From Flavobacteriales bacterium (lineage in GTDB: Bacteria > Bacteroidota > Bacteroidia > Flavobacteriales > Weeksellaceae): a stretch of 64,000 bases of DNA. Positions 16,560 to 38,249 of the stretch are shown here, in pieces; position 1 is the stretch's first letter, and each line of letters begins with the position of its first letter. The notes beneath the pieces were generated by a model. That model did no database searches. It was not told the DNA's origin and saw nothing but the letters and a program-made list of their open reading frames with translations. Where the stretch lies: contig JACJZS010000002.1 in assembly GCA_020635515.1 (NCBI GenBank), positions 1,162,273 through 1,226,272 on the forward strand. The letters are read 5' to 3'. The translations under genes were made by a program, and so were the position numbers.

Positions 16560-17876
16560 TTAGTTGATTATATAAATTCCGTCAGTATCTATTTTATCCA
16601 GTAGTACAGTTTCTAATGTGTTGATTTTATTTTTATTGAACTTCGTTTTTACACGTACATAATTTTCTGTGAATCCAAACATCATTCCGCTTTTGTTTTC
16701 GTGTTCCCAAAGAGCAGTTTTTCTTTTTCCGAGCTGAGATAAATAAAATTGTTTTTTCTTTTTTTCTGAGAGAATTCGGAGCATTTTATTTCTCTTTTTT
16801 CGTTCAGAAACAGGGACAATACCTTCCATTTCTACTGCTTCTGTATTTTCTCTTTCAGAATAAGTAAATACGTGTAAATAACTAATGTCTAAGTTATTGA
16901 TGTAGTTGTATGTTTCCATGAATTTTTCTTCTGTTTCTCCCGGGAAACCTACGATTACATCAACACCTATACAACAGTCAGGAATTTGATTTCGAATTGC
17001 ATCTACTCTTTCTGAGTAGAGTTTTGTTAAGTATCTGCGTTTCATTTTATTTAGAAGCTCATCACTTCCTGATTGTAAAGGAATATGAAAATGAGGAACA
17101 AATACTTTACTTTTAGATACAAATTCTATGGTTTCATTTTTTAATAAATTTGGTTCTATAGATGAAATTCGCACACGATTGATTCCTTCTATATTTTCCA
17201 GATTTTTTACCAAATCAAAGAATGTATGCTCGTGTTTTTTATTTCCGAATTCTCCTTTTCCATAATCTCCTACATTTACACCTGTTAAAACAATTTCCTG
17301 AATTCCTTGTTCGGAGATTTCTTTTGCTTGTTTTAGTATGTTTTCTAGTGTATCGGAACGAGAAATTCCTCTTGCTAACGGAATCGTACAATACGTACAT
17401 TTGTAGTCACAACCATCTTGAACTTTCAAAAATGCACGTGTTCTATCTCCTATAGAATACGAACCAACATAAAAATCTGTTTCTTCTATTTCGCAGGAAT
17501 GAATCTTTTCGTCGTGATTTTTATCATACGATTCTAAAAATTCTATAATGTTAAATTTTTCTTTTGCACCTAATACTAAGTCAACTCCTTCTATTTCTGC
17601 AATTTCATTGGGTTTTAGTTGAGCATAACAACCAATAATGATTACAAATGAATCAGGATTTGCTTTTAATGCTCGTTTTACAATGGTTTTACATTCTTTA
17701 TCTGCATTTTCGGTAACCGAACATGTATTAATTACTACTACATCAGCAAAAGTTCCAAATTCAACTTTTTTATATCCGTTTTCCACTAATTGACGTGCAA
17801 TAGTTGAGGTTTCAGAAAAGTTTAGTTTACAACCTAACGTATAAAAGGCAACTGTTTTTGTTTCCACAGAAATCAT
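16560..17876 (-). CDS. mtaB: tRNA (N6-threonylcarbamoyladenosine) methylthiotransferase, radical SAM MiaB-like
   Basis: N-terminal MTTase domain (FYTLGCKLNFSE), a radical-SAM CxxxCxxC (CDYKCTYCTIP) and a TRAM-like C-terminus. Shorter than MiaB, consistent with MtaB. Confidence 0.8.
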   Translation of the reverse strand: MISVETKTVAFYTLGCKLNFSETSTIARQLVENGYKKVEFGTFADVVVINTCSVTENADKECKTIVKRALKANPDSFVIIIGCYAQLKPNEIAEIEGVDLVLGAKEKFNIIEFLESYDKNHDEKIHSCEIEETDFYVGSYSIGDRTRAFLKVQDGCDYKCTYCTIPLARGISRSDTLENILKQAKEISEQGIQEIVLTGVNVGDYGKGEFGNKKHEHTFFDLVKNLENIEGINRVRISSIEPNLLKNETIEFVSKSKVFVPHFHIPLQSGSDELLNKMKRRYLTKLYSERVDAIRNQIPDCCIGVDVIVGFPGETEEKFMETYNYINNLDISYLHVFTYSERENTEAVEMEGIVPVSERKKRNKMLRILSEKKKKQFYLSQLGKRKTALWEHENKSGMMFGFTENYVRVKTKFNKNKINTLETVLLDKIDTDGIYIIN

Positions 17877-17932
17877 TTTACAAAGGTATAAAAAGAAATG
17901 TTTATTACATTTGCAAAATATTCAAAATAAGA

Positions 17933-18316
17933 TTGAAATACGTAGTTGCATTAACGTTAATTATTATTTTTTCACTACCATCTTTACAAAAGATTTGGAT
18001 TGTTATTGATTTTAAAATTAATCAAGATTTTATTGCTGAAGTCTTGTGTATCAACAAAGAAAAGCCAGAAAAACATTGTAATGGTAAATGTTATTTAGCA
18101 AAAGAATTAGAGAAATCAGACGAAGAAAACGATAAAAAGCAACCAAAAGAAGTTTCTAAAAAGAAAATAGAGTTTAATTTTATTTGTCCTGATTTTCAGA
18201 TTGACTTACCTAGAAAGAGTAGAATTACAAAGAAAAAGTTTTATACTTTTAAAAATATACCAATTTCTTCCTATTCCGAGGAGTTGTTTCATCCTCCTGA
18301 ATTACGTTGTATTTAA
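17933..18316 (+). CDS. Small secreted/membrane-anchored Cys-containing protein upstream of a TonB-dependent receptor; start is uncertain (TTG proposed)
   Basis: The ORF-track version (17804..) has its first 73 bp overlapping the mtaB 5' end on the opposite strand. A TTG at 17933 gives M-KYVVALTLIIIFSLPSLQ, a clean signal/anchor sequence. The mature part carries CNGKC and CPDF motifs. Confidence 0.3.
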   Translation: MKYVVALTLIIIFSLPSLQKIWIVIDFKINQDFIAEVLCINKEKPEKHCNGKCYLAKELEKSDEENDKKQPKEVSKKKIEFNFICPDFQIDLPRKSRITKKKFYTFKNIPISSYSEELFHPPELRCI

Positions 18317-18375
18317 TTCAAAACTTGACGAACATATTCGTCAAAATCATCTTATTAATTAAATCAAACAAAGAA

Positions 18376-20637
18376 ATGAATCGAAATAAATACATTATAC
18401 GATTTGTTATGTGTATATTTTTATACTTTATGTATACGCATATATCGTATTCTCAAATTATAAATGAAATAAAACTAGTAGATAAAGAAGATAATTCTCC
18501 TATAGAAGGAGTGGTTTTTACCTACGGAAATCAATCAGGTATTTCTGATGAAAATGGGATTATCAATTTACAAGAAAAAGAAAATATTTCTCTAATTCTT
18601 TCTCATATTAAGTATGGGGAAAAAGAATTAAGTAAAGAAAAGCTGAAAGAGGTTTTTAAAACACAAATTTATTTTATGCAGGAAATTCCTTCTATGCTTT
18701 ATCCGATAACCATTATAGGAACAAAGGAAAATCCAAATGAAATTTCAGTAACGAGCCAAGATAGAATGACGCATGACGGAGCGGTACTACTGAATCAAAT
18801 CCCTGAATTTAACAGTATTAGAAAAAGTGGAAACTATGGTTTTGATCCTGTTTTTAGAGGATTTAAAGATGCTCAATTAAATGTGGTAATGAATGGAGTT
18901 CAGACTAGTACAACGGCTTGTCCCAATAGAATGGATCCAGTTACAAGCCAAATGTCGCCAAACATGATGGAAAAAGTTGAAATCATAAAAGGACCTTATG
19001 CATTGCGTTATGGTTCAGGATTGGGAGCAACAATTAATTTTGTTTCAAAAGAACTAAAGTATTCAAAACAAGAAAATCTTTATGGACGCTTATCGGGAAA
19101 ATACGAGAGTAATGGAGAAGTTTTACGTAGTGAAGGACAAATAGGATACAGCCAGAAAAACTACAATGTAAATGTGTTTTCCGCATGGTCACAAGGAAAT
19201 GATTATAAAGATGGAAATGGAGAAACAGTTCCAGCAAATTTTTCGCGAGGAAGTTTTGGTGTAAGTGGAGGAATTAAAATTACTGATAATCAAGAGTTGA
19301 AAGCTTCGGTAATTCATAATGTAGCAGATGATACAGATTTTCCAAGTTTAATGATGGATTTAAGGAAAGATGATGTTTGGATGTTAAATCTGGAACATAA
19401 AATAGAGTTAAATAAGAAGAATTTAAAATCATGGAATTCTAACGTTTATGGTTCTTTTGTAAATCATTTAATGGATAATAAATTAAAGGAATTAAATCCA
19501 AGAATGATGAATGCGGAAACGTCAATTAATACTAAAAATTATGGAGTTAGGACAGAAGGGAAATGGAAATTTAAAAATGATGAATTATATACGGGATTGG
19601 ATATTCGTCATGAGCAAGCTGAGGGAGAAAGAAAAAGAGAATTTTTAATGGGACCTAATGCAGGAAAGACATTTACAGAAACTGCTTGGCAAGATGGATT
19701 TATTACTAAATCAGCATTATTTGGAGAATACCACACCAATCTGAATGATTTTGAATTTGTTTTTTCTTCTCGATTAGAACTTAATTCTTCTGATGTAAAA
19801 AATCCTGATAGCGACTATACGAGTGTATATTCCGATGTTCAAAAAACTCAATTTAATCCAAATTTTAGTTTAGGAGTTTCAAAAGCAATTTCAAATAAAA
19901 TTAAGTTGGGAGCGTGGTTGGCACGAGTTCAAAGGAGTGGAAGTTTAACAGAAAGATATATTAATTACTTTACGGTTGGAAAAGATGCATACGAGATGTT
20001 GGGAAATCCAAATTTAAATCCTGAAGTAAATAATCAGATTGATGTAGTTTTTGATTGGAGCACTTCTAAAACAAAAGTTAATGTAGATGTTTTTGCTTCT
20101 TATCTGCAAGATTATATTTCTTCGGTAATCAATCCTAATTTAACTTCTATGATTGCTTCGAGTCCTGGTGTTCGGCAATACATAAATATAAGTAAAGCTC
20201 AGAAAATGGGATTTGAACTTAAATGGAAACAAGATTTAGTTAAAAATATTTATCAGAATGTAGCAATTGCGTATACATATGCTCAAGATTTAGAAAGAGA
20301 TAAACCTTTACCAGAAATTGCACCGTTGGATTTTAGGTATTCATTACAAGGAAATTATTTTGATGGAAAATTTAAACCTGAAATTTCTTTCCGTCATGTT
20401 TTGAGGCAATCGCGTATTTCTAGTGAATTTGGAGAAACTGAAACACCTTCTTTTTCGGTGTTTGATTTTGATGTAATGTATAAATTATCAAAAAAAGTAC
20501 ACTTGAATGCTGGAATTTTAAATTTATTTGATGAGAATTATTACGAGCACTTAAATAGAAATAGGATAAATACTCAAAAACCAATTTATGCTCCAGGAAG
20601 AAATTTTTATATTTCTTTTACGGCAGATTTCAACTAA
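18376..20637 (+). CDS. TonB-dependent receptor
   Basis: Signal peptide after the internal Met (MNRNKYIIRFVMCIFL...), a plug domain (DGAVLLNQIPEFNSIRKSG...FRGF) and a ~600-aa beta-barrel. The ORF-track start at 18307 looks like an N-terminal over-extension. Confidence 0.85.
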   Translation: MNRNKYIIRFVMCIFLYFMYTHISYSQIINEIKLVDKEDNSPIEGVVFTYGNQSGISDENGIINLQEKENISLILSHIKYGEKELSKEKLKEVFKTQIYFMQEIPSMLYPITIIGTKENPNEISVTSQDRMTHDGAVLLNQIPEFNSIRKSGNYGFDPVFRGFKDAQLNVVMNGVQTSTTACPNRMDPVTSQMSPNMMEKVEIIKGPYALRYGSGLGATINFVSKELKYSKQENLYGRLSGKYESNGEVLRSEGQIGYSQKNYNVNVFSAWSQGNDYKDGNGETVPANFSRGSFGVSGGIKITDNQELKASVIHNVADDTDFPSLMMDLRKDDVWMLNLEHKIELNKKNLKSWNSNVYGSFVNHLMDNKLKELNPRMMNAETSINTKNYGVRTEGKWKFKNDELYTGLDIRHEQAEGERKREFLMGPNAGKTFTETAWQDGFITKSALFGEYHTNLNDFEFVFSSRLELNSSDVKNPDSDYTSVYSDVQKTQFNPNFSLGVSKAISNKIKLGAWLARVQRSGSLTERYINYFTVGKDAYEMLGNPNLNPEVNNQIDVVFDWSTSKTKVNVDVFASYLQDYISSVINPNLTSMIASSPGVRQYINISKAQKMGFELKWKQDLVKNIYQNVAIAYTYAQDLERDKPLPEIAPLDFRYSLQGNYFDGKFKPEISFRHVLRQSRISSEFGETETPSFSVFDFDVMYKLSKKVHLNAGILNLFDENYYEHLNRNRINTQKPIYAPGRNFYISFTADFN

Positions 20638-23550: not shown

Positions 23551-24408
23551 ATGAAATTTCCTGATTATATTACAACAGAAAAACTTAATTATTTTATAAA
23601 GAATGCATTAGAAGAAGATTTAGGAGGTGGAGATTATTCTACTCTTGCTACTATTCCCAAAAGTTTAATTCAAAAAGCACAGCTTATTGTTAAAGAAGAT
23701 TGTATTCTTGCAGGAGTTGAAATTGCTAATTATATCTTTAAGTATTTTGATGAATCCATACAAATTGAGAATCTAATTAAAGACGGAAGTAGTGTGAAAA
23801 AAGGAGATATTGCTTTTATTGTAGAAGGTAAAGCACAATCAATTTTAAGTACAGAAAGACTTATTCTCAACTGTATGCAACGAATGAGCGGAATTGCTAC
23901 GTATACTTACCAAATGAATCAACTGATTAAAGATACCAATTGCAAACTTTTAGATACCAGGAAAACAACTCCCAATTTTAGAATGCTAGAAAAACTTGCA
24001 GTTCTTATAGGTGGAGGAACGAATCATCGATTTGGATTGTATGACATGATTATGCTCAAAGACAATCACATAGATTACAACGGAAGCATTACCAATGCTG
24101 TAGAAATGACAAAAAAATACCTTAAAGAAAATAATTTAAACCTAAAGATAGAAGTAGAAACTAGAAATTTAGAAGAAGTAAAAGAAGCACTAAAAAGTAA
24201 GGTAGATAGAATCATGCTCGACAATATGAACTATGAAACCATGAAAAAAGCCGTAGCAATAATTGACAAGCAATGTGAAACGGAAGCTTCTGGTGGAATC
24301 ACAGAAAAAAACCTACGTCAAGTTTCAGAAACAGGAGTTGATTTTATCTCCATCGGTGCTTTAATTCACTCAGCAAAAAACATTGATTTAAGTTTAAAAG
24401 CGGTTTAG
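23551..24408 (+). CDS. nadC: Nicotinate-nucleotide pyrophosphorylase (carboxylating) / quinolinate phosphoribosyltransferase
   Basis: 285 aa with conserved NadC regions (RMSGIAT, LDTRKTTP, IMLDNM). Confidence 0.9.
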   Translation: MKFPDYITTEKLNYFIKNALEEDLGGGDYSTLATIPKSLIQKAQLIVKEDCILAGVEIANYIFKYFDESIQIENLIKDGSSVKKGDIAFIVEGKAQSILSTERLILNCMQRMSGIATYTYQMNQLIKDTNCKLLDTRKTTPNFRMLEKLAVLIGGGTNHRFGLYDMIMLKDNHIDYNGSITNAVEMTKKYLKENNLNLKIEVETRNLEEVKEALKSKVDRIMLDNMNYETMKKAVAIIDKQCETEASGGITEKNLRQVSETGVDFISIGALIHSAKNIDLSLKAV

Positions 24409-24410
24409 AT

Positions 24411-24492
24411 TTTTTAGAGGAGAGAAGATAGAGAAAAGAACAAAGACGTGGCAAAACCATATTCTATCCTCTTTGTTCTAATGTCTTTTTTC
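24411..24492. repeat. Direct repeat, left copy (~82 bp), flanking the TA cassette; contains a 10-bp-stem hairpin
   Basis: tttttagaggagagaagatagagaaaagaacaaagacgtggcaaaaccatattctatcctctttgttctaatgtcttttttc. It recurs at 25066..25160. Inside it, agaacaaaga and tctttgttct are inverted repeats. Confidence 0.7.
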
Positions 24493-24494
24493 TT

Positions 24495-24805
24495 CTAAGA
24501 AATAGGTTTTTCTCTAGTTCCTCTAAAATTAATGATTTCAATTAGCTTTTTTCTAGATTTTATTCGGTAAATTATGTAATTATTCTTGTCTATCAATTAT
24601 TCTTGTCTATCAATCCTTTATGAGTGTTTTTGAACCTTGAAGTTTGAGGAAACATCAAAGGATATTCCTTAATGGATTCAATAAATTTTTCAATTTTAGA
24701 TTCCAGTTGTTTAATTTCTCTAGTTGTCCATTCTTTTTCTAAGTAATTTATGGCTTTATCAAGTCCCTTAAGAGCTTGAGGAGTCCAAAGTACTTTTACT
24801 TCCAT
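24495..24805 (-). pseudogene. ParE/RelE-family type II toxin gene disrupted by a 17-bp tandem duplication; the track-called remnant is 24593..24805 (70 aa)
   Basis: The called ORF ends at GLIDKNN*, with the stop created inside the second copy of the duplicated 17-mer. Deleting one copy in silico restores the frame and gives MEVKVLWTPQALKGLDKAINYLEKEW...GLIDKNNYIIYRIKSRKKLIEIINFRGTREKPIS*, 98 aa. That is the canonical ParE/RelE N- and C-terminal signature, with a stop at 24495-24497. Confidence 0.7.
24580..24613. repeat. Perfect 17-bp tandem duplication (ttattcttgtctatcaa x2) causing the toxin frameshift
   Basis: Copies read directly at 24580-24596 and 24597-24613. 17 is not divisible by 3, and on the minus strand the junction reads ...aataaTTGAtag..., introducing a TGA. 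Confidence 0.9.
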
Positions 24806-25023
24806 TTGGAAAATCTTTTCATTGCCTCTTTATGAGAAATTCCTTCTTCATGATTTGCCTCTTTAATTCCTTGAGCAATTTCTTCTTGTTCTGTTTCTGA
24901 AAGATTAATCCACCAATCCGTTTTTTCTTCTCTCAGTACCTGATCTAAATGTTTAATAACACTCTCTTTATTTAAAGCAATGATTCTTTGAATGATGTCT
25001 AATTTAGTAAGTTCCAAATTCAT
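24796..25023 (-). CDS. Type II antitoxin, putative addiction-module component (ParD/Phd-like small helical protein)
   Basis: MNLELTKLDIIQRIIALNKESVIKHLDQVL...AMKRFSKWK. Its stop overlaps the toxin start by 10 bp, the classic TA arrangement. The ORF-track start (25041) adds MYIWSI; the internal Met at 25023 is preferred. Confidence 0.6.
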   Translation of the reverse strand: MNLELTKLDIIQRIIALNKESVIKHLDQVLREEKTDWWINLSETEQEEIAQGIKEANHEEGISHKEAMKRFSKWK

Positions 25024-25065
25024 GATACTCCAAATATACAAAATTATTTATTTGACTTTTAGATT

Positions 25066-25160
25066 TTTTAGAGGAAAGAAGATAGAGGAAAGAAGATAGA
25101 GAAAAGAACAAAGATGTGGCAAAACCATATTCTATCCTCTTTGTTCTAATGTCTTTTCTC
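25066..25160. repeat. Direct repeat, right copy (~95 bp), with an internal 14-bp tandem duplication
   Basis: Matches the left copy except for three point mismatches (g/a, c/t, t/c) and an extra gaaagaagatagag. It ends 16 bp before the stop of the TPR gene. Confidence 0.7.
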
Positions 25161-25176
25161 TATCTTTTACTATCTC

Positions 25177-28131
25177 TCAAAATTTCTTCTTCACTTTATT
25201 AGCTTCTTCTATAATATCCGAATATTCGGTATAATTTTCCAATACTTGGTTTATAGTGTAGTTTGCTTGATACAAATCATTTAAATAGAAATAATTTTCA
25301 GACATTACAACCAAAGATTTTGCTCCCCAGTATTGTTGTTCAGAATAATTAGATACCAAATTGAATATTACTTCGTTGGATTCTTTATACTTTTTATCTT
25401 TATTTAGAAAGTATGCCTTGTAATACAAACTTTCTGCTTTTACGGCTTCATTACTCGAATTTTCTAATTCTTTGTATAATTCTTTTGCTTTATTTTCTTC
25501 TCCTAAACTTAATTCTGATTTTGCTATAATTACTTTTGCCGTTTCTTTGATTGTTTGTGAATTAGTATCATTTGAAATCACTTTATTTGCCATTTCTACA
25601 GCATTTTTATATTGTTTCTTTTCTGCATACAAATGCATCAATTCCAGTTCACAGAAACTTAAATAATTAGGATTATTAGAAACTTGATACAATGCTTCTA
25701 ATGATAAAAATGCTTCATCTTTTTTGTTTTGATTCAAATAAATTTGAGATAACCTAAGTAACGCTTCTTCTTGATTTTCATTTGGTTTTCCTGCTACTTT
25801 TGTAAAATAAGGAATTGCTTTTTCAAGTTGTTTTAACTGATAATAACTTTCTGCTAAATAGAAATTTACCAAGGTAGTTTTAGTGCTTTTAGGGAAATTA
25901 ATATCAAAACCAGTCAAATCATTGATAGTTTGTTGGTATTTTTGGGAACTGAAACTTTTCTGAGCAACAGCGAATACAAATTCTTCTTTTTCTTGGTTGG
26001 TAATGGAATAATTGATGCTTTTAATCCAGCTTTCAAAACCTTTAACATTTCCTGTTTTTACATAAAGTGATTGAGCTTCAGAAACTGCTCGCTTTACATA
26101 ATCGGTTTGTGCGTATTTTTTTGCGATTGATTTATACTCATTAATTGCTCTTTCATCTTGATTTAACTGTGCATAACTATCGGCACGAGCAAAATAAGAG
26201 TTTGTTAGGATTTCATTTTGCTTATCCATAGAAATTACTTTGTCGTAATAACTAATTGCATCATTGTATTTTTGTAGAGAATAGTATGCATTTGCAATTT
26301 CGTAATAAGCGGTTTGTTTTTTATCGCTATTAGGATAGTTTTGTATATAATCTTGAAGTGTTTTTATTTTTTCACTTTGTTTTCCTTGCAATCCATATAG
26401 ATTTGCTCGCTGAAATGTTGCATATTCAGAATTTTCCGTTTCTTCTGCTGTATCATAAATTGCAATAGCTTTATCGTAATTATTCAATCCTAAATACGCA
26501 TCTGCAAGGCGAAGTTTTGCATCTTCTTCTAACTCTTTTGTTGGATTATTTAAAAAACGCTCAAAGTATTCAACAGATTTTTCATAATTCTTTACTTTTA
26601 AATACGTAAATCCAAACAAATAAGGAAGTTGTATTTTTTCTGAATAATTAATGTTGATTTTCTCTAAGGTTTTTAAATTTAGGAGAGTTTCAGTATAATT
26701 ACCTAACTGAAAATTAGATTCTGCACTCCAGAAAAGAGATTTTGCTAACACTTCTTGATTAGACGTAATTTCTATTGCGTGTTTAAAGTTATCTATTGCT
26801 TGCTGGTACTTTCCTTCATTAAAAAGACGTACTCCATTTAGGTACGAAACTTCTTGGTATGCATTTTTTAATTCAGGAGATTTATTTGATTTTGTTTTTA
26901 GAATGTTTACAGCATCGTCTAACTGATTTGATTTCACATAGGATTTTACCAAAAGTTGGTTCATTTTTGCTTGATGTGGATTTTTAGGATAGTTGTCCAA
27001 AAAACGCTGAATTGCATTTGGTGTAGATTCAAATGGATTCCCAATATCAAAACTTAATTTCGCATAGTTGTAATGAGCATTTTCAGCAACTTTTGCATTA
27101 AAGTTCATTTCGCTTGCAGATTTATACGCAGTTAATGCTTCCTGCTTTTTGTTGGTTTTTAGATACGAATTACCTAATTGATAATATGCATTTTGTCCTA
27201 ATTCCGAATTTTCAGAAGTTATCTTATTAAAGTTATCTACCGCTTTTTGGTAGTTTCCGTTCACATAATACACATATCCTAATTGGTAAAAGTCTGATGC
27301 TTTTGGATTTTCTTGCGAATCAATATAATTTTCTAAGTATGGAATAGCTTGTTTGTATTCTTGAAGTTTAAAGTAACTTTCTCCTATAATTTTTGAGATT
27401 TCTGATTTCATCTCAGGAAATGCTCCCGAATTGAGAAGTTTTTTCCCTTCCTCTATTGCTTGATTGTATTTTTTGTCGTTAAAATAAATTTGAATCAAAT
27501 ATGGACGAACTTTTTGAGAATAATTTTCATGATTTAAAAGAGGTTCAAAATAGTTCATTACTTGAGCATATTTTCCTTCATGATAAAGAATATGTCCTAT
27601 CATGTAATCGGTTTCATTTTTATAATGATTTGCTTTATTGACTTTTTTTAGTGGAGATAATGCTTTTTGATATTCCTCACTCATAAAATAAGCATATCCT
27701 AGTTTGTAATAATGATTAATTTTTTCTTCTTCATTAAAATCGCTCGGTAAAACTTTAGATAAATAATATGCAGAATTTTCATATTGTCCATTTATCAAAT
27801 AGAAATTTCCAAGCGGTTCATATAGAGAATATTCTTGTTTTATTTCTGGATTTTCATTTGCATACTTTTCATATTCTTCTAGTGCATATTTCTCTTGAAG
27901 AACCAAATCAGCAACTACTTTTTTGAATGTTAAATCATTAGCAATAACAGCATTTGGTTTCTGAAAACTCAGTATATCTCTTGCTGAATTTTGTACAGCA
28001 GAATATGCTTTGTCATTAAACTGACTTTCTGCTTTTGTGATTTCGTATGTAATTTGTTTATAATAATCAGATTGTTGACCAAAAGAAAATGTAGTAAATA
28101 ATATATATATATAAAGACTTTTGAATTTCAT
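25177..28131 (-). CDS. Tetratricopeptide-repeat (TPR) protein with signal peptide, 984 aa
   Basis: An N-terminal signal peptide, then TPR-like 34-aa repeats along the whole length (recurrent Y..G..Y..A motifs). Confidence 0.8.
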   Translation of the reverse strand: MKFKSLYIYILFTTFSFGQQSDYYKQITYEITKAESQFNDKAYSAVQNSARDILSFQKPNAVIANDLTFKKVVADLVLQEKYALEEYEKYANENPEIKQEYSLYEPLGNFYLINGQYENSAYYLSKVLPSDFNEEEKINHYYKLGYAYFMSEEYQKALSPLKKVNKANHYKNETDYMIGHILYHEGKYAQVMNYFEPLLNHENYSQKVRPYLIQIYFNDKKYNQAIEEGKKLLNSGAFPEMKSEISKIIGESYFKLQEYKQAIPYLENYIDSQENPKASDFYQLGYVYYVNGNYQKAVDNFNKITSENSELGQNAYYQLGNSYLKTNKKQEALTAYKSASEMNFNAKVAENAHYNYAKLSFDIGNPFESTPNAIQRFLDNYPKNPHQAKMNQLLVKSYVKSNQLDDAVNILKTKSNKSPELKNAYQEVSYLNGVRLFNEGKYQQAIDNFKHAIEITSNQEVLAKSLFWSAESNFQLGNYTETLLNLKTLEKININYSEKIQLPYLFGFTYLKVKNYEKSVEYFERFLNNPTKELEEDAKLRLADAYLGLNNYDKAIAIYDTAEETENSEYATFQRANLYGLQGKQSEKIKTLQDYIQNYPNSDKKQTAYYEIANAYYSLQKYNDAISYYDKVISMDKQNEILTNSYFARADSYAQLNQDERAINEYKSIAKKYAQTDYVKRAVSEAQSLYVKTGNVKGFESWIKSINYSITNQEKEEFVFAVAQKSFSSQKYQQTINDLTGFDINFPKSTKTTLVNFYLAESYYQLKQLEKAIPYFTKVAGKPNENQEEALLRLSQIYLNQNKKDEAFLSLEALYQVSNNPNYLSFCELELMHLYAEKKQYKNAVEMANKVISNDTNSQTIKETAKVIIAKSELSLGEENKAKELYKELENSSNEAVKAESLYYKAYFLNKDKKYKESNEVIFNLVSNYSEQQYWGAKSLVVMSENYFYLNDLYQANYTINQVLENYTEYSDIIEEANKVKKKF

Positions 28132-33425: not shown

Positions 33426-36400
33426 ATGTCCGAAGAGTCACAAAACAATCAAGTTTCCAAGGAAACGTACGAAATCATAAAAACTCGTCTTAATAAGCAA
33501 AAAGACGATCTAATTCTGCGTTTAAAAAAGTTAAACGAAAATAGAAATGAAGTTTTTGGAAACAAAGAGTTTAGTTTAATTGCAAACGAAAGAATCTCCA
33601 CAGAACAAGCATGCAAACCAAAGGATATTTTTTCCATTGAAAATCATGTAATCCTCGGATACAACGTGCATCTAGGTTTAAAAAATGAAATTGATATTTC
33701 CGATATTTTTTCTGTTTATTCTTTTGAGAACAATACGTTTGAACCATCTCATCTTAACTTCTTGTCTGATGCAAATTTTATAGACGAAATAAAAAACCTG
33801 TATAAATACTACCGAAATACCAATTTTAAACGTTTTTACTCTACCGAAAATTATCTTTATTTCGTATTTCAACTTTCGGAATCTGTATCGGATATCAAAG
33901 CATTTAAATTTCTAATTGAAAAAGAACAAATTACTTATATTGACTCTCGTTCGGCATCAGAAGTTACTTTCCCTCAACAACACAGTTTTAAATGGGAAAA
34001 AGCCACACGCGACATGCAAAAAACGGGAAAATTTCCTCACGTTTCTCTTGCAAATAAAGTTTTTGTAGAGGCAATTGACGGAGATATTACCATAAAAGTG
34101 GAAGATAACACCGACTCTGGTCTTGGAATCTATTCGGAAGAAGTACAGCACAAAGATCAATCGTTAGACGATGCCGAAATTCATTTTTGTGATTTAGGTA
34201 ATTTAGTTATTTTCAAGATAAAACCGTATCGAGAAGAAGAGCGATATTTTATTTATAATCACAAAGAAAAAAAGGTTTTTAAAGTTGATTCTTTGGAAAA
34301 TTCTGGTATTCTTTTGCCAGAAAATCAAGGAATCATATTTCCAAACGGATACATTCTGCAAAATGGAGAATCGAAAGTAATACATCAAGAAAACCAAGAT
34401 ATTCGTTTTTTGAAACGTATTGCTAGTTCAAATGGAGAAAACTTTCTCTTCGTATACTACAACATTACCTCATCAGATTATTTAATTCTTCCTTACAGCA
34501 TCATTTCTCAAACCATAGATACTCCTATTAGCTGTACGGGTTTTTCTATATTTGATGATGGAACTTTAATTTATTTAAAAGCTAATGAAGAAACAACTAA
34601 AAACCATTTGGTACAACTTTGGGAAACACCTTTTTCCAAGGAAATTAAAATTAACAAGGAACTTGAAAATAATCTTTTGTTTAAAATTGGCAATAAAGAT
34701 TTGGTTCGTCTTCTCGCTGATTGCAACGAATTAATTACATTATTAGAAAAAGAAGATTCTTACTCAGGATTATACAACGATATTGTAACAGAATCTACCG
34801 ACATTTTAGATGCGTATTATTTTTTAAATGAAGAAAAAGTAGGAGAAATTCAAATTCCGTTACTTGAAATTCGAAAAATTGCTCATTCTGCAATAAATGA
34901 ATACGAGAAAGTAGTTGAAATTCGAAAAAATACAAAACAAAAAGTATCCGAAGTTCAAGAAAAATGTGAGAATATTCTTCAAACTACCAAACATTTAGAA
35001 TACAATACTCTTACAGAATACATAGATAATCTTTCTGAACTAAGGAAAATCGTTGGAGAAATTATTTCTGCTCGAAACCTTTCTTATGTAGATATTTCAC
35101 TATTAGACGAACTAGAAAATAAAATTAAAGAACGTTCCGAAGAGCTTTCAGGTGCATGTGTTAAATTTTTACTTCAAGATAACGCTTTAACTCCTTACGA
35201 AGAAAAAGCAAATAATCTATCCCAAAAGATTGAGAATTTAACAAAAGCTATACAGAAAAAAGAAATTGAATCCGAACTCGATGAACTCGCTTTCCAATTG
35301 GAGCTTTTAGTTGATGTTGTAAATAATTTAAAAATAGAAGATACTTCTCAATCAACTGAAATTATTCAAAATATTTCTGTAATCTTTTCACGAATCAATA
35401 CAGAGAGAATAGAACTCAACAAAAAGGTAAAAGAAGTTTCTTCTAAAGAATTATCTGCTGACTTTCAAGCTCAAATTACACTTTTCGACCAATCTGTAGT
35501 CAACTTTATGGAGCTTGCAAATACTCCAGAAAAATGCGATGAATACCTTACCAAATTATCTTTAAGTTTAGAAGAACTAGAAACCAAATTTGTAGATTTT
35601 GAGGAATTTATTGAGGAAATAGCAGAAAAACGAGAAAATGTATACAATCATTTTCAAGCAAAAAAAGTTCAACTCAACGAACAAAGAAATAAAAGAACCA
35701 ACACTTTGTTTTCTTCTGCCAAAAGAATTCTAAATGGAATAAAAAACAAAGCAGAAAACTTTAAATCAGAAACTGAAATCAATGGTTTTTTTGCTTCGGA
35801 TTTAATGGTAAATAAAGTAATTGACTTTTCTAATCAACTGTTAGAATTAGAAGATTCTGCAAAATCGGAAGAAATTCTCACGTTGCTCAAAACAACGCAA
35901 CAAGAAGTAATAAGGAAACTAAAAGATAAAAACGAACTTTTTAAAGACGGAGATAATATTATTTCTTTTGGCGAATACAAATTTGCAATCAATACTCAAA
36001 AGTTAGATTTATCTCTTGTTTTAAGAGAAAATCAATACTATTTTCATCTAACAGGAACTAGCTTTTACGAAAAAATTAAAGATGAATCCATTTATCATTT
36101 AAAAGAAGTTTGGAATCAAGAATATAAATCCGAAAACAAATCAGTTAAGCATTTCGAATACTTAGCTTTTCAAATCTTCTCTAAGAACAAAGAGCTAAAT
36201 AATGTCGATAAAAACACTTCTCTCATACAAGAGTATATGTCCTCTAACTATTCCGAAGGATATGTAAAAGGAATACACGATTCAGATGCTTTGCAATTAA
36301 CAAATGTTTTACAGCATCTTCATAATGAACTGGGAATTCTAAAGTTTAATCCAAAAGAACGAGCATTAGCTCAGCTTTTTTGGAATCAACAATCCAGCGA

Positions 36401-38249
36401 ATATAAAGAGCTTTTAGAAAAGCAATTCAGTGCAATTCAGTTGGTAAATGAAACCTTGAATAGCAATGCAACATTTGATTATATTGTTGATGAGGTAGCT
36501 GAAAAAATTGCGGAATTTTCTATCGAATTTCAAGAATTTAAAAATACAAATCTAAATAACTCTGTAAGTTACTTAATCAAAGAAAATAGAAATGAATTTA
36601 CAATTTCTAAAACTGCATCGGATTTTTACCTCTCATTTCTAAAATACTTAAAAAATAAAACAAAAGATATTGACTTCTTAAATAAAATTGAAAACTTAAA
36701 AAATCATGTAGAAGAATGTTTTTCGATTATTTATAGTTCGTTGAAAAGTTATGCTGAAATCGAAAATTATTCCATAGAAGAATCGTATTTAGTAGAAGTT
36801 GCGGTACTTTACTTATTGAATAATTATCATGAAAATCAAGTGCTAAATGTTCCAACTCAAATCGAACTGAAAGAACTAAAGTCTCTTGAAAGCAATCAAA
36901 TATACAAGCTAGATTATCATCAATTTACTCGAAAACTCGATTTATACACACATGAAATTGTTCCGAAGTTCGATGAGTTAAAAAAGCTAAAACATCAATT
37001 GGTAGTTGAGAAAAAAAATCAATTAAAAATTGATAGCTTCCAGTCAAATGTATTGAGCTCATTTGTAAGAAACAAACTTATCAACCAGGTATATTTTCCT
37101 CTTATTGGAGCAAATCTATCCAAACAATTAGGAACAGTAGGCGAAAATAAACGCACAGATAAAATGGGAATGTTGCTTTTAGTTTCTCCTCCAGGATACG
37201 GAAAAACTACACTTATGGAATACCTCGCCAATCGACTTGGGTTAATTTTTATGAAAATAAATGCTCCATCAATAGGACATTCCATTACTTCTGTAGATCC
37301 TTCTCAGGCAGATAATTCTGCTGCTAAACAGGAGTTAGAAAAATTAAATCTTGCTTTTGAGATGGGAGATAATGTAATGTTGTATTTAGATGACATTCAG
37401 CATTGTAATCCTGAGTTTTTACAAAAATTCATTTCTCTTGCAGACGGACAAAGAAAGATAGAAGGTATTTACAACGGAGAGTCAAAAACCTATGATTTAC
37501 GTTCCAAAAGATTTTGTTTGGTAATGGCAGGAAATCCATATACAGAAAGTGGAGAAAAATTCAAAATACCAGATATGCTTTCCAATCGTGCAGATATCTA
37601 CAATTTAGGAGATATTGCAGGTAATAAACGAGATTTATTCGATTTAAGTCTTATAGAGAATGCGTTAATGTCTAATGTGTACCTTAGAAAACTAACGGAA
37701 TTATCATTAGAAAATCTGTATAGTTTACTCAGTTTAATTCAAAACCCAAATAGTTCTAGTAAAATTAAAGGTAACTTTTCTAATCAAGAAATAGAAGATT
37801 TTAAATCTGTGTTGTTAAAGTCAATTCAAATTAGAAATACGGTAATAAAAGTAAATGAATTGTACATAAAATCTTCTGCGATGAGCGACGACTATCGTAA
37901 AGAACCAGTATTTAAACTGCAAGGTTCATACAGAGATATGAATAAACTGTTAAGTAAAGTGCAACCGATACAAAATGAAAGTGAAATTACAGATATTGTA
38001 TTAGAGCATTATCAGAATGAAAGTCAAACACTTACTATCGATGCAGAAGCAAATCTACTTAAACTTCGTGAATTGATGAATCTTCTATCTAATGAAGAAA
38101 AAAGCAGATGGGAGGAAATAAAAACTACTTTCCAAAAAAATCAAAAGTTTAAATCACTAGGAGATAATGATAGAATGAGTCAGATAGTTGCCTTGCTTTC
38201 TGAGTTTTCTGACGGTTTAAATGGAATCAAAGATGTTTTAAAAAAGTAG
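33426..38249 (+). CDS. Giant (1607 aa) protein: N-terminal ~400-aa beta-rich domain, a long helical/coiled-coil middle, and a C-terminal AAA_5-type (MoxR/McrB/dynein-like) ATPase module
   Basis: Walker A LLLVSPPGYGKTT (about nt 37186-37212). Walker B plus sensor region MLYLDDIQHCNPEFLQKFISLAD. Sensor-1/Arg region LVMAGNPYTESGEKFKIPDMLSNRADIYNL. This collinear pattern matches AAA_5 ATPases (LLDEINRA-NPEV...; ..TMNP.....L..AL.NRF). The ORF is uninterrupted, with no frameshifts. Confidence 0.85.
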   Translation: MSEESQNNQVSKETYEIIKTRLNKQKDDLILRLKKLNENRNEVFGNKEFSLIANERISTEQACKPKDIFSIENHVILGYNVHLGLKNEIDISDIFSVYSFENNTFEPSHLNFLSDANFIDEIKNLYKYYRNTNFKRFYSTENYLYFVFQLSESVSDIKAFKFLIEKEQITYIDSRSASEVTFPQQHSFKWEKATRDMQKTGKFPHVSLANKVFVEAIDGDITIKVEDNTDSGLGIYSEEVQHKDQSLDDAEIHFCDLGNLVIFKIKPYREEERYFIYNHKEKKVFKVDSLENSGILLPENQGIIFPNGYILQNGESKVIHQENQDIRFLKRIASSNGENFLFVYYNITSSDYLILPYSIISQTIDTPISCTGFSIFDDGTLIYLKANEETTKNHLVQLWETPFSKEIKINKELENNLLFKIGNKDLVRLLADCNELITLLEKEDSYSGLYNDIVTESTDILDAYYFLNEEKVGEIQIPLLEIRKIAHSAINEYEKVVEIRKNTKQKVSEVQEKCENILQTTKHLEYNTLTEYIDNLSELRKIVGEIISARNLSYVDISLLDELENKIKERSEELSGACVKFLLQDNALTPYEEKANNLSQKIENLTKAIQKKEIESELDELAFQLELLVDVVNNLKIEDTSQSTEIIQNISVIFSRINTERIELNKKVKEVSSKELSADFQAQITLFDQSVVNFMELANTPEKCDEYLTKLSLSLEELETKFVDFEEFIEEIAEKRENVYNHFQAKKVQLNEQRNKRTNTLFSSAKRILNGIKNKAENFKSETEINGFFASDLMVNKVIDFSNQLLELEDSAKSEEILTLLKTTQQEVIRKLKDKNELFKDGDNIISFGEYKFAINTQKLDLSLVLRENQYYFHLTGTSFYEKIKDESIYHLKEVWNQEYKSENKSVKHFEYLAFQIFSKNKELNNVDKNTSLIQEYMSSNYSEGYVKGIHDSDALQLTNVLQHLHNELGILKFNPKERALAQLFWNQQSSEYKELLEKQFSAIQLVNETLNSNATFDYIVDEVAEKIAEFSIEFQEFKNTNLNNSVSYLIKENRNEFTISKTASDFYLSFLKYLKNKTKDIDFLNKIENLKNHVEECFSIIYSSLKSYAEIENYSIEESYLVEVAVLYLLNNYHENQVLNVPTQIELKELKSLESNQIYKLDYHQFTRKLDLYTHEIVPKFDELKKLKHQLVVEKKNQLKIDSFQSNVLSSFVRNKLINQVYFPLIGANLSKQLGTVGENKRTDKMGMLLLVSPPGYGKTTLMEYLANRLGLIFMKINAPSIGHSITSVDPSQADNSAAKQELEKLNLAFEMGDNVMLYLDDIQHCNPEFLQKFISLADGQRKIEGIYNGESKTYDLRSKRFCLVMAGNPYTESGEKFKIPDMLSNRADIYNLGDIAGNKRDLFDLSLIENALMSNVYLRKLTELSLENLYSLLSLIQNPNSSSKIKGNFSNQEIEDFKSVLLKSIQIRNTVIKVNELYIKSSAMSDDYRKEPVFKLQGSYRDMNKLLSKVQPIQNESEITDIVLEHYQNESQTLTIDAEANLLKLRELMNLLSNEEKSRWEEIKTTFQKNQKFKSLGDNDRMSQIVALLSEFSDGLNGIKDVLKK

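Follow-up and report, generated by a model that had tools for sequence, protein, structure and literature searches.

How did a chromosomal toxin-antitoxin (TA) locus come to carry an uninterrupted antitoxin gene next to a toxin gene broken by a perfect repeat, and does this arrangement reflect decay, a reversible switch or an error of assembly? The locus lies in a window of 64,000 nt (the whole stretch of DNA that was analyzed, with positions counted from its first letter), spanning positions 1,162,273 to 1,226,272 of the forward strand of contig JACJZS010000002.1 in GCA_020635515.1, a metagenome-assembled genome (MAG) of a Flavobacteriales bacterium assigned to the Weeksellaceae. An initial annotation of this DNA had proposed that a ParE/RelE-type toxin gene was recently inactivated here by a perfect 17-bp tandem duplication that left the antitoxin intact, and that the duplication could act as an ON/OFF switch. 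The analysis presented below indicates that the ParE-type toxin of this chromosomal TA cassette probably lost its function recently, through a slippage duplication, as is ordinary for the opening stage of TA erosion.

The duplication itself is readily verified. Direct comparison on the + strand shows that the 17-mer TTATTCTTGTCTATCAA at 24580-24596 is identical to 24597-24613, in the context ...aattatgtaa TTATTCTTGTCTATCAA TTATTCTTGTCTATCAA tccttt..., and Tandem Repeats Finder recovers the same repeat with a period of 17, 2.2 copies, 100% matches and a score of 74. The period-17 register spans 24578-24614 and comprises both units and a further 3 nt of microhomology. Read on the coding strand, the unit becomes TTGATAGACAAGAATAA, with the translation L-I-D-K-N-N; the second copy is read out of frame to give ...GLIDKNN-TGA-TAG. 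Both the perfect repeat and the termination of the toxin open reading frame (ORF) at GLIDKNN inside the second copy, after 70 codons, are therefore as initially annotated. Based on the composition of the window (30.4% G+C), the chance expectation of perfect 17-nt tandem repeats in 64 kb is about 4e-5, and just two more perfect tandem repeats whose units reach 10 nt are present in the window; the duplication is hence regarded as real and not as a chance feature. Two of these three repeats fall in the 0.8-kb TA locus. A perfect 10-nt tandem repeat (GCAATTCAGT twice) lies at 36422-36441, inside an intact 1607-aa ORF (33426-38249) whose frame is unbroken as read. The ancestral single copy would have read ATT-GATAGACAAGAATA-ATT on the coding strand, that is, a 3-nt microhomology with 17-nt spacing, and a 3-nt microhomology at such spacing is a classic substrate for slipped-strand duplication. 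The footprint of an excised transposon, left as a 17-bp target-site duplication, was considered and judged unlikely: the ATT microhomology suits slippage, bacterial cut-and-paste elements leave no clean target-site-duplication footprints and a length of 17 bp would be atypical.

When one copy of the 17-mer is deleted, a continuous 97-codon ORF (24805..24495, - strand) ending in YIIYRIKSRKKLIEIINFRGTREKPIS before its stop codon is recovered. The restoration put forward in the initial annotation thus holds, with a product of 97 instead of 98 aa and a motif that reads YxxYR (YIIYR) instead of YxxxYR. The restored 97-aa protein matches PF05016 (ParE_toxin) over residues 5-94 and profile positions 1-88 of 89 (38.1 bits against a cut-off of 23, E 2.3e-9), and the 70-aa truncated product scores 28.6 bits over profile positions 1-48 only, so that the family match is full length only once the frame is restored. 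Against TIGR02385 (RelE_StbE), the restored toxin reaches 24.3 bits, under the cut-off of 27.9. Among 5.8 billion proteins, 70 homologs were found, almost all of them 96-97 aa long, with 45-65% identity and 95-100% coverage; these come from Flavobacteriia and other Bacteroidota and are annotated, where named, as 'type II toxin-antitoxin system RelE/ParE family toxin'. No match to this toxin clade was found by tblastn in plasmids (PLSDB) or phages (INPHARED). In an alignment with 25 of the homologs (26 sequences) the restored toxin is free of gaps, and the duplication junction lies inside the most conserved block of the family, IDKNNYIIYR, in which D67, K68, N69, Y71 and Y74 are invariant; this position bears out the earlier view of the duplication as the inactivating event.

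The predicted structure of the restored toxin agrees with this family assignment. The AlphaFold2 model (predicted local distance difference test score, pLDDT, 86.2; predicted template modelling score, pTM, 0.75) has the order beta1-alpha1-alpha2-beta2-beta3-beta4, with strands at residues 4-7, 61-65, 70-77 and 82-90 and helices at 9-25 and 28-47, and so displays the superfamily fold of an N-terminal strand, a two-helix hairpin and a three-stranded antiparallel C-terminal sheet. A Foldseek search of the PDB with this model gave 39 matches at E<=1e-3, all of them TA toxins of the ParE/RelE superfamily. The best was ParE2 of PaaA2-ParE2 (5czf_C; template modelling score, TM, 0.81; E 9e-7), and the leading group, to which PfiT and the ParE of ParDE systems also belong, spans TM 0.75-0.81 (0.75-0.77 for the other ParDE toxins); YoeB, RelE and YafQ gave lower values (0.58-0.71). 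In a sequence-profile search of the PDB, ParE2 and ParE1 were the sole significant matches (E 5e-4). Because it is nearer to ParE than to RelE, YoeB or YafQ in both sequence and modelled structure, the restored toxin is assigned to the ParE branch of the superfamily, as a member of a Flavobacteriia clade, in keeping with the ParE/RelE label given initially. Its likeness to the solved toxins ParE2 of E. coli O157 (5czf, 5cw7) and Caulobacter ParE1 (3kxe) extends to the predicted fold (TM 0.81 and 0.75), a length of about 95 aa, a small helical antitoxin encoded upstream and a weak but significant profile similarity (E 5e-4). The window locus differs from them in a sequence identity of about 20%, in having no adjacent third regulator gene and in its antitoxin, whose family lacks a model and has relatives in none of Pfam, NCBIfam and the PDB. 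Relative to the restored model, the 70-aa fragment keeps beta1, the alpha1-alpha2 hairpin and beta2, and the stop after residue 70 deletes beta3 (70-77), beta4 (82-90) and the C-terminal tail; judging from the predicted fold, the truncated product is very probably non-toxic.

The antitoxin gene, on the other side of the overlap, presents an uninterrupted 75-aa ORF (25023..24796), 75 aa being also the modal length of its homologs, and retains the invariant residues D36, W37, E45, G52, A56, F71 and W74, which supports the initial statement that the antitoxin was left intact, at the level of the reading frame. Its final 10 nt overlap the start codon region of the toxin. The arrangement is that of a type II TA module: two small co-directional genes, antitoxin first, that overlap and are conserved together as a pair. 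In about 58 of 60 related loci, an antitoxin homolog with 30-47% identity lies directly upstream of the toxin and overlaps it in the same way; essentially all loci uncut by contig ends have it. A single-sequence homology search with the antitoxin returned only itself, and a profile search identified a family of 573 members at E<=1e-3, of about 75 aa each. No match to a Pfam or NCBIfam model, no relative by sequence in the PDB and no significant structural neighbour in a Foldseek search with its AlphaFold2 model (five helices, pLDDT 70.8) were obtained, and no recognizable DNA-binding domain emerged from the family and structure searches. The members of this antitoxin family (including homologs P0073-P0192) are mostly annotated as 'hypothetical protein' and at times as 'Addiction module component'.

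The state of the toxin across the family provides the context in which the lesion can be interpreted. The survey comprised 62 related loci, with one genome per species, 60 of which could be assessed for toxin state. The toxin is disrupted in 15 of these 60 loci: nine copies are frameshifted or truncated (L045, L048, L050, L051, L052, L053, L055, L057, L060), five carry nonsense codons (L015, Y48*; L025, K24*; L032, W26*; L035, K57*; L044, Q77*) and one has lost its start codon (L036). The antitoxin ORF is whole in 12 of the 15 loci with a broken toxin, and the converse combination of intact toxin and broken antitoxin was seen in 0 of 60 loci (sign test p ~5e-4). At least six of the broken toxins come from cultured isolates (Aquimarina rubra, Galbibacter marinus, Polaribacter sp. 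IC073, Gillisia sp. Q332, a Maribacter sp. and Marixanthomonas spongiae), and the pattern is therefore not an artefact of MAGs. The lesions are scattered in position and of many types, a heterogeneity that fits plain decay. The window locus and its relatives therefore show together what characterizes an eroding TA module, namely a toxin lesion beside an intact antitoxin ORF and independent lesions among homologs.

Some further observations were made in the course of this survey. The codon of the invariant Trp26 is a stop in three separate loci (L032, L045, L053), which probably reflects recurrent TGG-to-stop transitions. A second antitoxin homolog is found at 5125-5325 of L048, some 2 kb downstream of a TA pair with a toxin cut short at residue 78. 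Two TA pairs, L012 and L013, lie about 7.5 kb apart on Flaviramulus contig CANKVS010000020.1 and are equal in identity to the window queries (toxin, 57.7%; antitoxin, 44.6%).

The sequence past the frameshift bears on the age of the lesion. The 27 codons past the frameshift are still open, their mean identity to homologs (0.63) is as high as that among the homologs themselves in the same segment (0.64), and no second lesion was seen in the toxin gene. Since this out-of-frame tail has undergone no extra decay, the duplication looks evolutionarily young, in line with the recent event originally proposed. Two perfect 17-mers may remain perfect for very long, and a precise date can hence not be given. 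The public records of the assembly are consistent with a broken gene. Exact look-up of the 70-aa and 97-aa toxins showed that neither is a protein record. The products of nadC and of the antitoxin gene match MCB9202515.1 and MCB9202516.1 exactly, from a MAG contig of 1.55 Mb; these accessions are consecutive and no protein was issued for the toxin, which suggests that the annotator treated the toxin gene as a pseudogene.

Some points weigh against reading the locus as a young, inactivating duplication. The duplication is known from a single MAG assembly; the loss of toxicity of the 70-aa fragment is deduced from a predicted fold; and a 33-codon TTG-start ORF (24596..24495, - strand) overlaps the stop of the truncated ORF (TTGA), so that separate synthesis of the C-terminal piece of the toxin is formally possible. 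The first of these points relates to the idea of an assembly or consensus artefact, in which the population would really be single-copy and the extra 17 nt would stem from the assembler, the polisher or a minority variant. Such an artefact would account for the perfectly preserved downstream frame, as expected of an intact gene, and the MAG origin of the sequence together with the lack of an independent copy of the locus in the collections searched also speaks for it. No second copy was encountered in 15 billion proteins or in JGI metagenomes, metagenome scans with the hairpin core of the repeats that flank the cassette and with a 29-mer common to both alleles gave 0 matches each, and the nadC and antitoxin products have no relatives at >=90% identity in the protein collection. 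Sequencing and assembly errors are, however, typically homopolymer indels and collapsed repeats, and a perfect 17-nt non-homopolymer duplication with microhomology would be atypical among them. Elsewhere in the window, long intact ORFs are closely packed, every tested pair of neighbouring ORFs encodes complete, distinct domains and no other frameshifted gene is visible in the 64 kb, which indicates that the assembly is not generally error-ridden. In addition, a broken toxin is unsurprising in a family in which a quarter of the toxins are broken, isolates included. An artefact is therefore considered unlikely. One further pair of ORFs, 17804-18316 and 18307-20637, was examined as a candidate frameshifted gene and rejected, as the short ORF matches no family and the long one holds complete TonB-dependent receptor domains.

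A different objection is that the truncated product might still be functional, either as a non-toxic 70-aa co-repressor or decoy that binds the antitoxin, or as one half of a split toxin reassembled from two pieces via the TTGA overlap. The fragment would keep the helical hairpin, which in solved complexes of ParE with its antitoxin makes up a large part of the surface that binds the antitoxin, and the TTG-initiated ORF, covering residues 66-97, overlaps the new stop codon. A four-stranded sheet deprived of two strands is nonetheless unlikely to fold, to judge from the AlphaFold2 model, TTG starts without ribosome-binding context are weak, and relatives are inactivated at many positions, even very early ones (K24*, W26*), as expected for simple loss of function. 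Of all the alternatives weighed here, residual function appears the most improbable. Programmed frameshifting over the duplication was likewise rejected, because the -1 frame contains a TAA right before the re-entry point, no slippery heptamer is present and the product would gain a 6-residue insertion in a beta-strand.

The ON/OFF switch suggested in the initial annotation would require that slippage gain and lose the copy at high frequency, so that subpopulations would have the toxin, and with it a capacity for addiction or abortive infection, turned OFF and ON. The substrate for such behaviour is present, since adjacent perfect 17-nt copies with 3 nt of microhomology lend themselves to RecA-independent deletion, and as toxin ORF and antitoxin are otherwise undamaged a revertant would be functional. 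Reversible tandem duplications inside ORFs are moreover documented for phase variation of the pneumococcal genes cap3A, cap8E and tts (Waite et al. 2001, 2003, as cited in PMC4022640) and for Ralstonia phcA (Poussier 2003). The window locus resembles these systems in that a short perfect tandem duplication inside an ORF shifts the frame and exact loss of one copy would restore the gene. In those systems, however, both states interconvert at measurable frequency under selection, whereas here one state is seen in one assembly and no recurrence of the duplication was found at the same gene in related lineages. No ON allele appeared in protein, genome or metagenome searches; in the genome scan, which covered one genome per species and did not include the source genome, only homologs with at most 76% identity and no single-copy allele were detected. 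Among the nine frameshifted or truncated toxins that were scanned, a scan that did not extend to the five nonsense copies and the start-loss copy, no tandem duplication longer than 6 nt was present, and in the alignment the homologs carry no pre-existing repeat tract at the duplication site. The other 15 lesions are nonsense codons, small frameshifts, truncations and a start loss at scattered positions and, with the antitoxin present, ON and OFF cells would differ in no obvious selectable phenotype. Reversal is thus mechanistically possible, and the proposal of a contingency switch is not supported beyond that; it is considered highly unlikely.

A young loss-of-function duplication consequently remains the preferred explanation, and the course of events may be outlined as follows. 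The ancestral state would have been a two-gene type II TA cassette on the - strand, with antitoxin followed by toxin and with overlapping stop and start codons. The most likely cause of the 17-bp duplication would be slipped-strand mispairing during replication between the two ATT triplets 17 nt apart. The frame would then shift inside the invariant IDKNNYIIYR, ending translation after residue 70, and the truncated product, lacking beta-strands 3 and 4 and the C-terminal tail, would very probably have lost toxicity. With its antitoxin still whole, the locus would stand at the stage from which erosion of chromosomal TA modules usually sets out, since losing the toxin first is safe for a cell and losing the antitoxin first is not. 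Later loss of one copy by the same slippage could occur, as an incidental reversion and not as a designed switch.

Decay that begins with the toxin has precedents. Chromosomal TA modules decay through inactive toxin mutants according to Fraikin et al. (PMC7167474), where ccdO157 of E. coli (Mine et al. 2009) is cited as a case of decay, and the pseudogenizations counted in Photorhabdus by Belot et al. 2026 (PMC13617665) comprise 185 toxin-only, 186 toxin-plus-antitoxin and 8 antitoxin-only events. The window locus is like these cases in being a chromosomal two-gene module whose toxin is inactivated and whose antitoxin ORF is kept, in the recurrence of independent lesions among homologs (15 of 60 here) and in the absence or rarity of antitoxin-only loss. 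It differs in the toxin family and host phylum, a ParE clade of Flavobacteriia, and in the type of lesion, a 17-bp tandem duplication where mostly point mutations and deletions have been described. The present case is one more instance of known toxin-first erosion, notable only for its legibility.

The surroundings of the cassette raise a separate question, that of its arrival. The cassette sits between convergent nadC (23551-24408, + strand) and the gene of a 984-aa TPR protein (25177-28131, - strand), in a neighbourhood that also encodes an XRE-HTH protein and TonB-dependent receptors, and is flanked on either side by a direct repeat; the two bracketing repeats are about 90-105 nt long and 95% identical over 83 nt (Table 1). 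Both fold as long imperfect hairpins (-31 and -38 kcal/mol on the + strand, z ~-4) containing no canonical intrinsic terminator, and comparison with Rfam gave no family and only sub-threshold, generic matches resembling miRNA precursors. The repeats differ by a 14-nt unit, which, as read from the sequence, would be a second short slippage-type difference at the same locus. Beyond these two, no further copies of the repeat exist in the window, and no recombinase adjoins the cassette there. The antitoxin ATG lies 34 nt from the right repeat, so the whole promoter must fit into this spacer or reach into the hairpin repeat. A candidate -7 box of the Bacteroidetes type (consensus TAnnTTTG), picked by eye, would imply a leaderless or near-leaderless TA transcript, given its distance of 7 nt from the ATG.

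Table 1. Coordinates of the TA cassette and of the elements around it in the 64,000-nt window
Feature	Position	Strand	Description	Basis
Two perfect 17-nt tandem copies	24580..24613		+ strand TTATTCTTGTCTATCAA; coding strand TTGATAGACAAGAATAA (L-I-D-K-N-N)	sequence, Tandem Repeats Finder
ParE-family toxin pseudogene	24495..24805	-	ancestral ORF span plus 17-bp insertion; restored product 97 aa	
Truncated frame now present	24593..24805	-	70 aa, then TGA and TAG	ORF, predicted secondary structure
Out-of-frame 3' toxin remnant	24495..24579	-	codons 71-97 (YIIYRIKS...REKPIS, then stop), still open, conserved	
Intact antitoxin gene	24796..25023	-	75 aa, MCB9202516.1 (H6604_05665, 'hypothetical protein')	ORF, exact protein match
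Candidate Bacteroidetes-type -7 box	25031..25038	-	TATATTTG, 7 nt upstream of antitoxin ATG	by eye
Left bracketing direct repeat	24404..24496	+	long imperfect hairpin; starts with last 5 nt of nadC (TT+TAG), ends over toxin stop codon	
Right bracketing direct repeat	25058..25165	+	carries copy of nadC TTTAG, ends 11 nt before stop of TPR gene	
14-nt unit	25069..25108		TAGAGGAAAGAAGA, 2.9 copies in right repeat, one unit more than left	

Bracketing of this kind is not confined to the window. Using blastn at E<=1e-8 as the criterion, direct repeats on both sides within 500 nt were found for 10 of 52 family cassettes (L002, L004, L008, L009, L023, L027, L031, L047, L052, L057), versus 4 of 192 offset control positions taken within those loci (Fisher p = 4.5e-5). 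Of 155 pseudo-cassette positions in the window, 1 showed such repeats, namely the TA itself. The repeats of the related loci are 29-258 nt long and unrelated in sequence from locus to locus, and for L023, L027, L031 and L057 their start coincides with or overlaps the stop codon of the host gene upstream. The configuration looks like insertion with duplication of a segment comprising a gene 3' end or terminator, or like Campbell-type integration of a circle bearing one copy.

Integron cassette arrays often carry TA cassettes, and the window locus shares with integron cassettes and their attC sites the layout of a short TA cassette that is promoter-proximal and lies between similar repeats, about 90-105 nt long, that form hairpins. 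Unlike attC sites, the bracketing repeats show no sequence relationship from one related locus to another and in many cases take in the 3' end of a host gene, and so look like a duplicated target and not like a site borne by the cassette. No integron core (RYYYAAC/GTTRRRY) was apparent by eye in 24404-24496 or 25058-25165, no dedicated attC model having been run, and no integron integrase lies near the cassette in the window. A more elaborate version of the switch would make the duplication one state of a heritable, reversible toxin switch inside a mobile cassette, with the hairpin repeats mediating excision and re-integration. This scenario is held to be just as improbable as the simple switch; if true, armed, disarmed and cassette-free cells would coexist in one population.

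Taken as a slippage-duplication loss of function, the locus would be a clean textbook case of toxin-first TA erosion caught at its first mutational step, with the mutational mechanism legible. It also provides a data point from Flavobacteriia, in which TA biology has, to our knowledge, been little studied, and in which about a quarter of the toxins of this ParE clade are inactivated while their antitoxins persist. The presence of a host gene's 3' end in the bracketing repeats hints at an undescribed insertion route for two-gene TA cassettes, and the unmodelled antitoxin family and the repeat-bracketed cassettes are the parts most deserving of further attention. More generally, the observations agree with the idea that chromosomal TA modules are short-lived selfish elements, whose orphan antitoxins may serve as anti-addiction factors.

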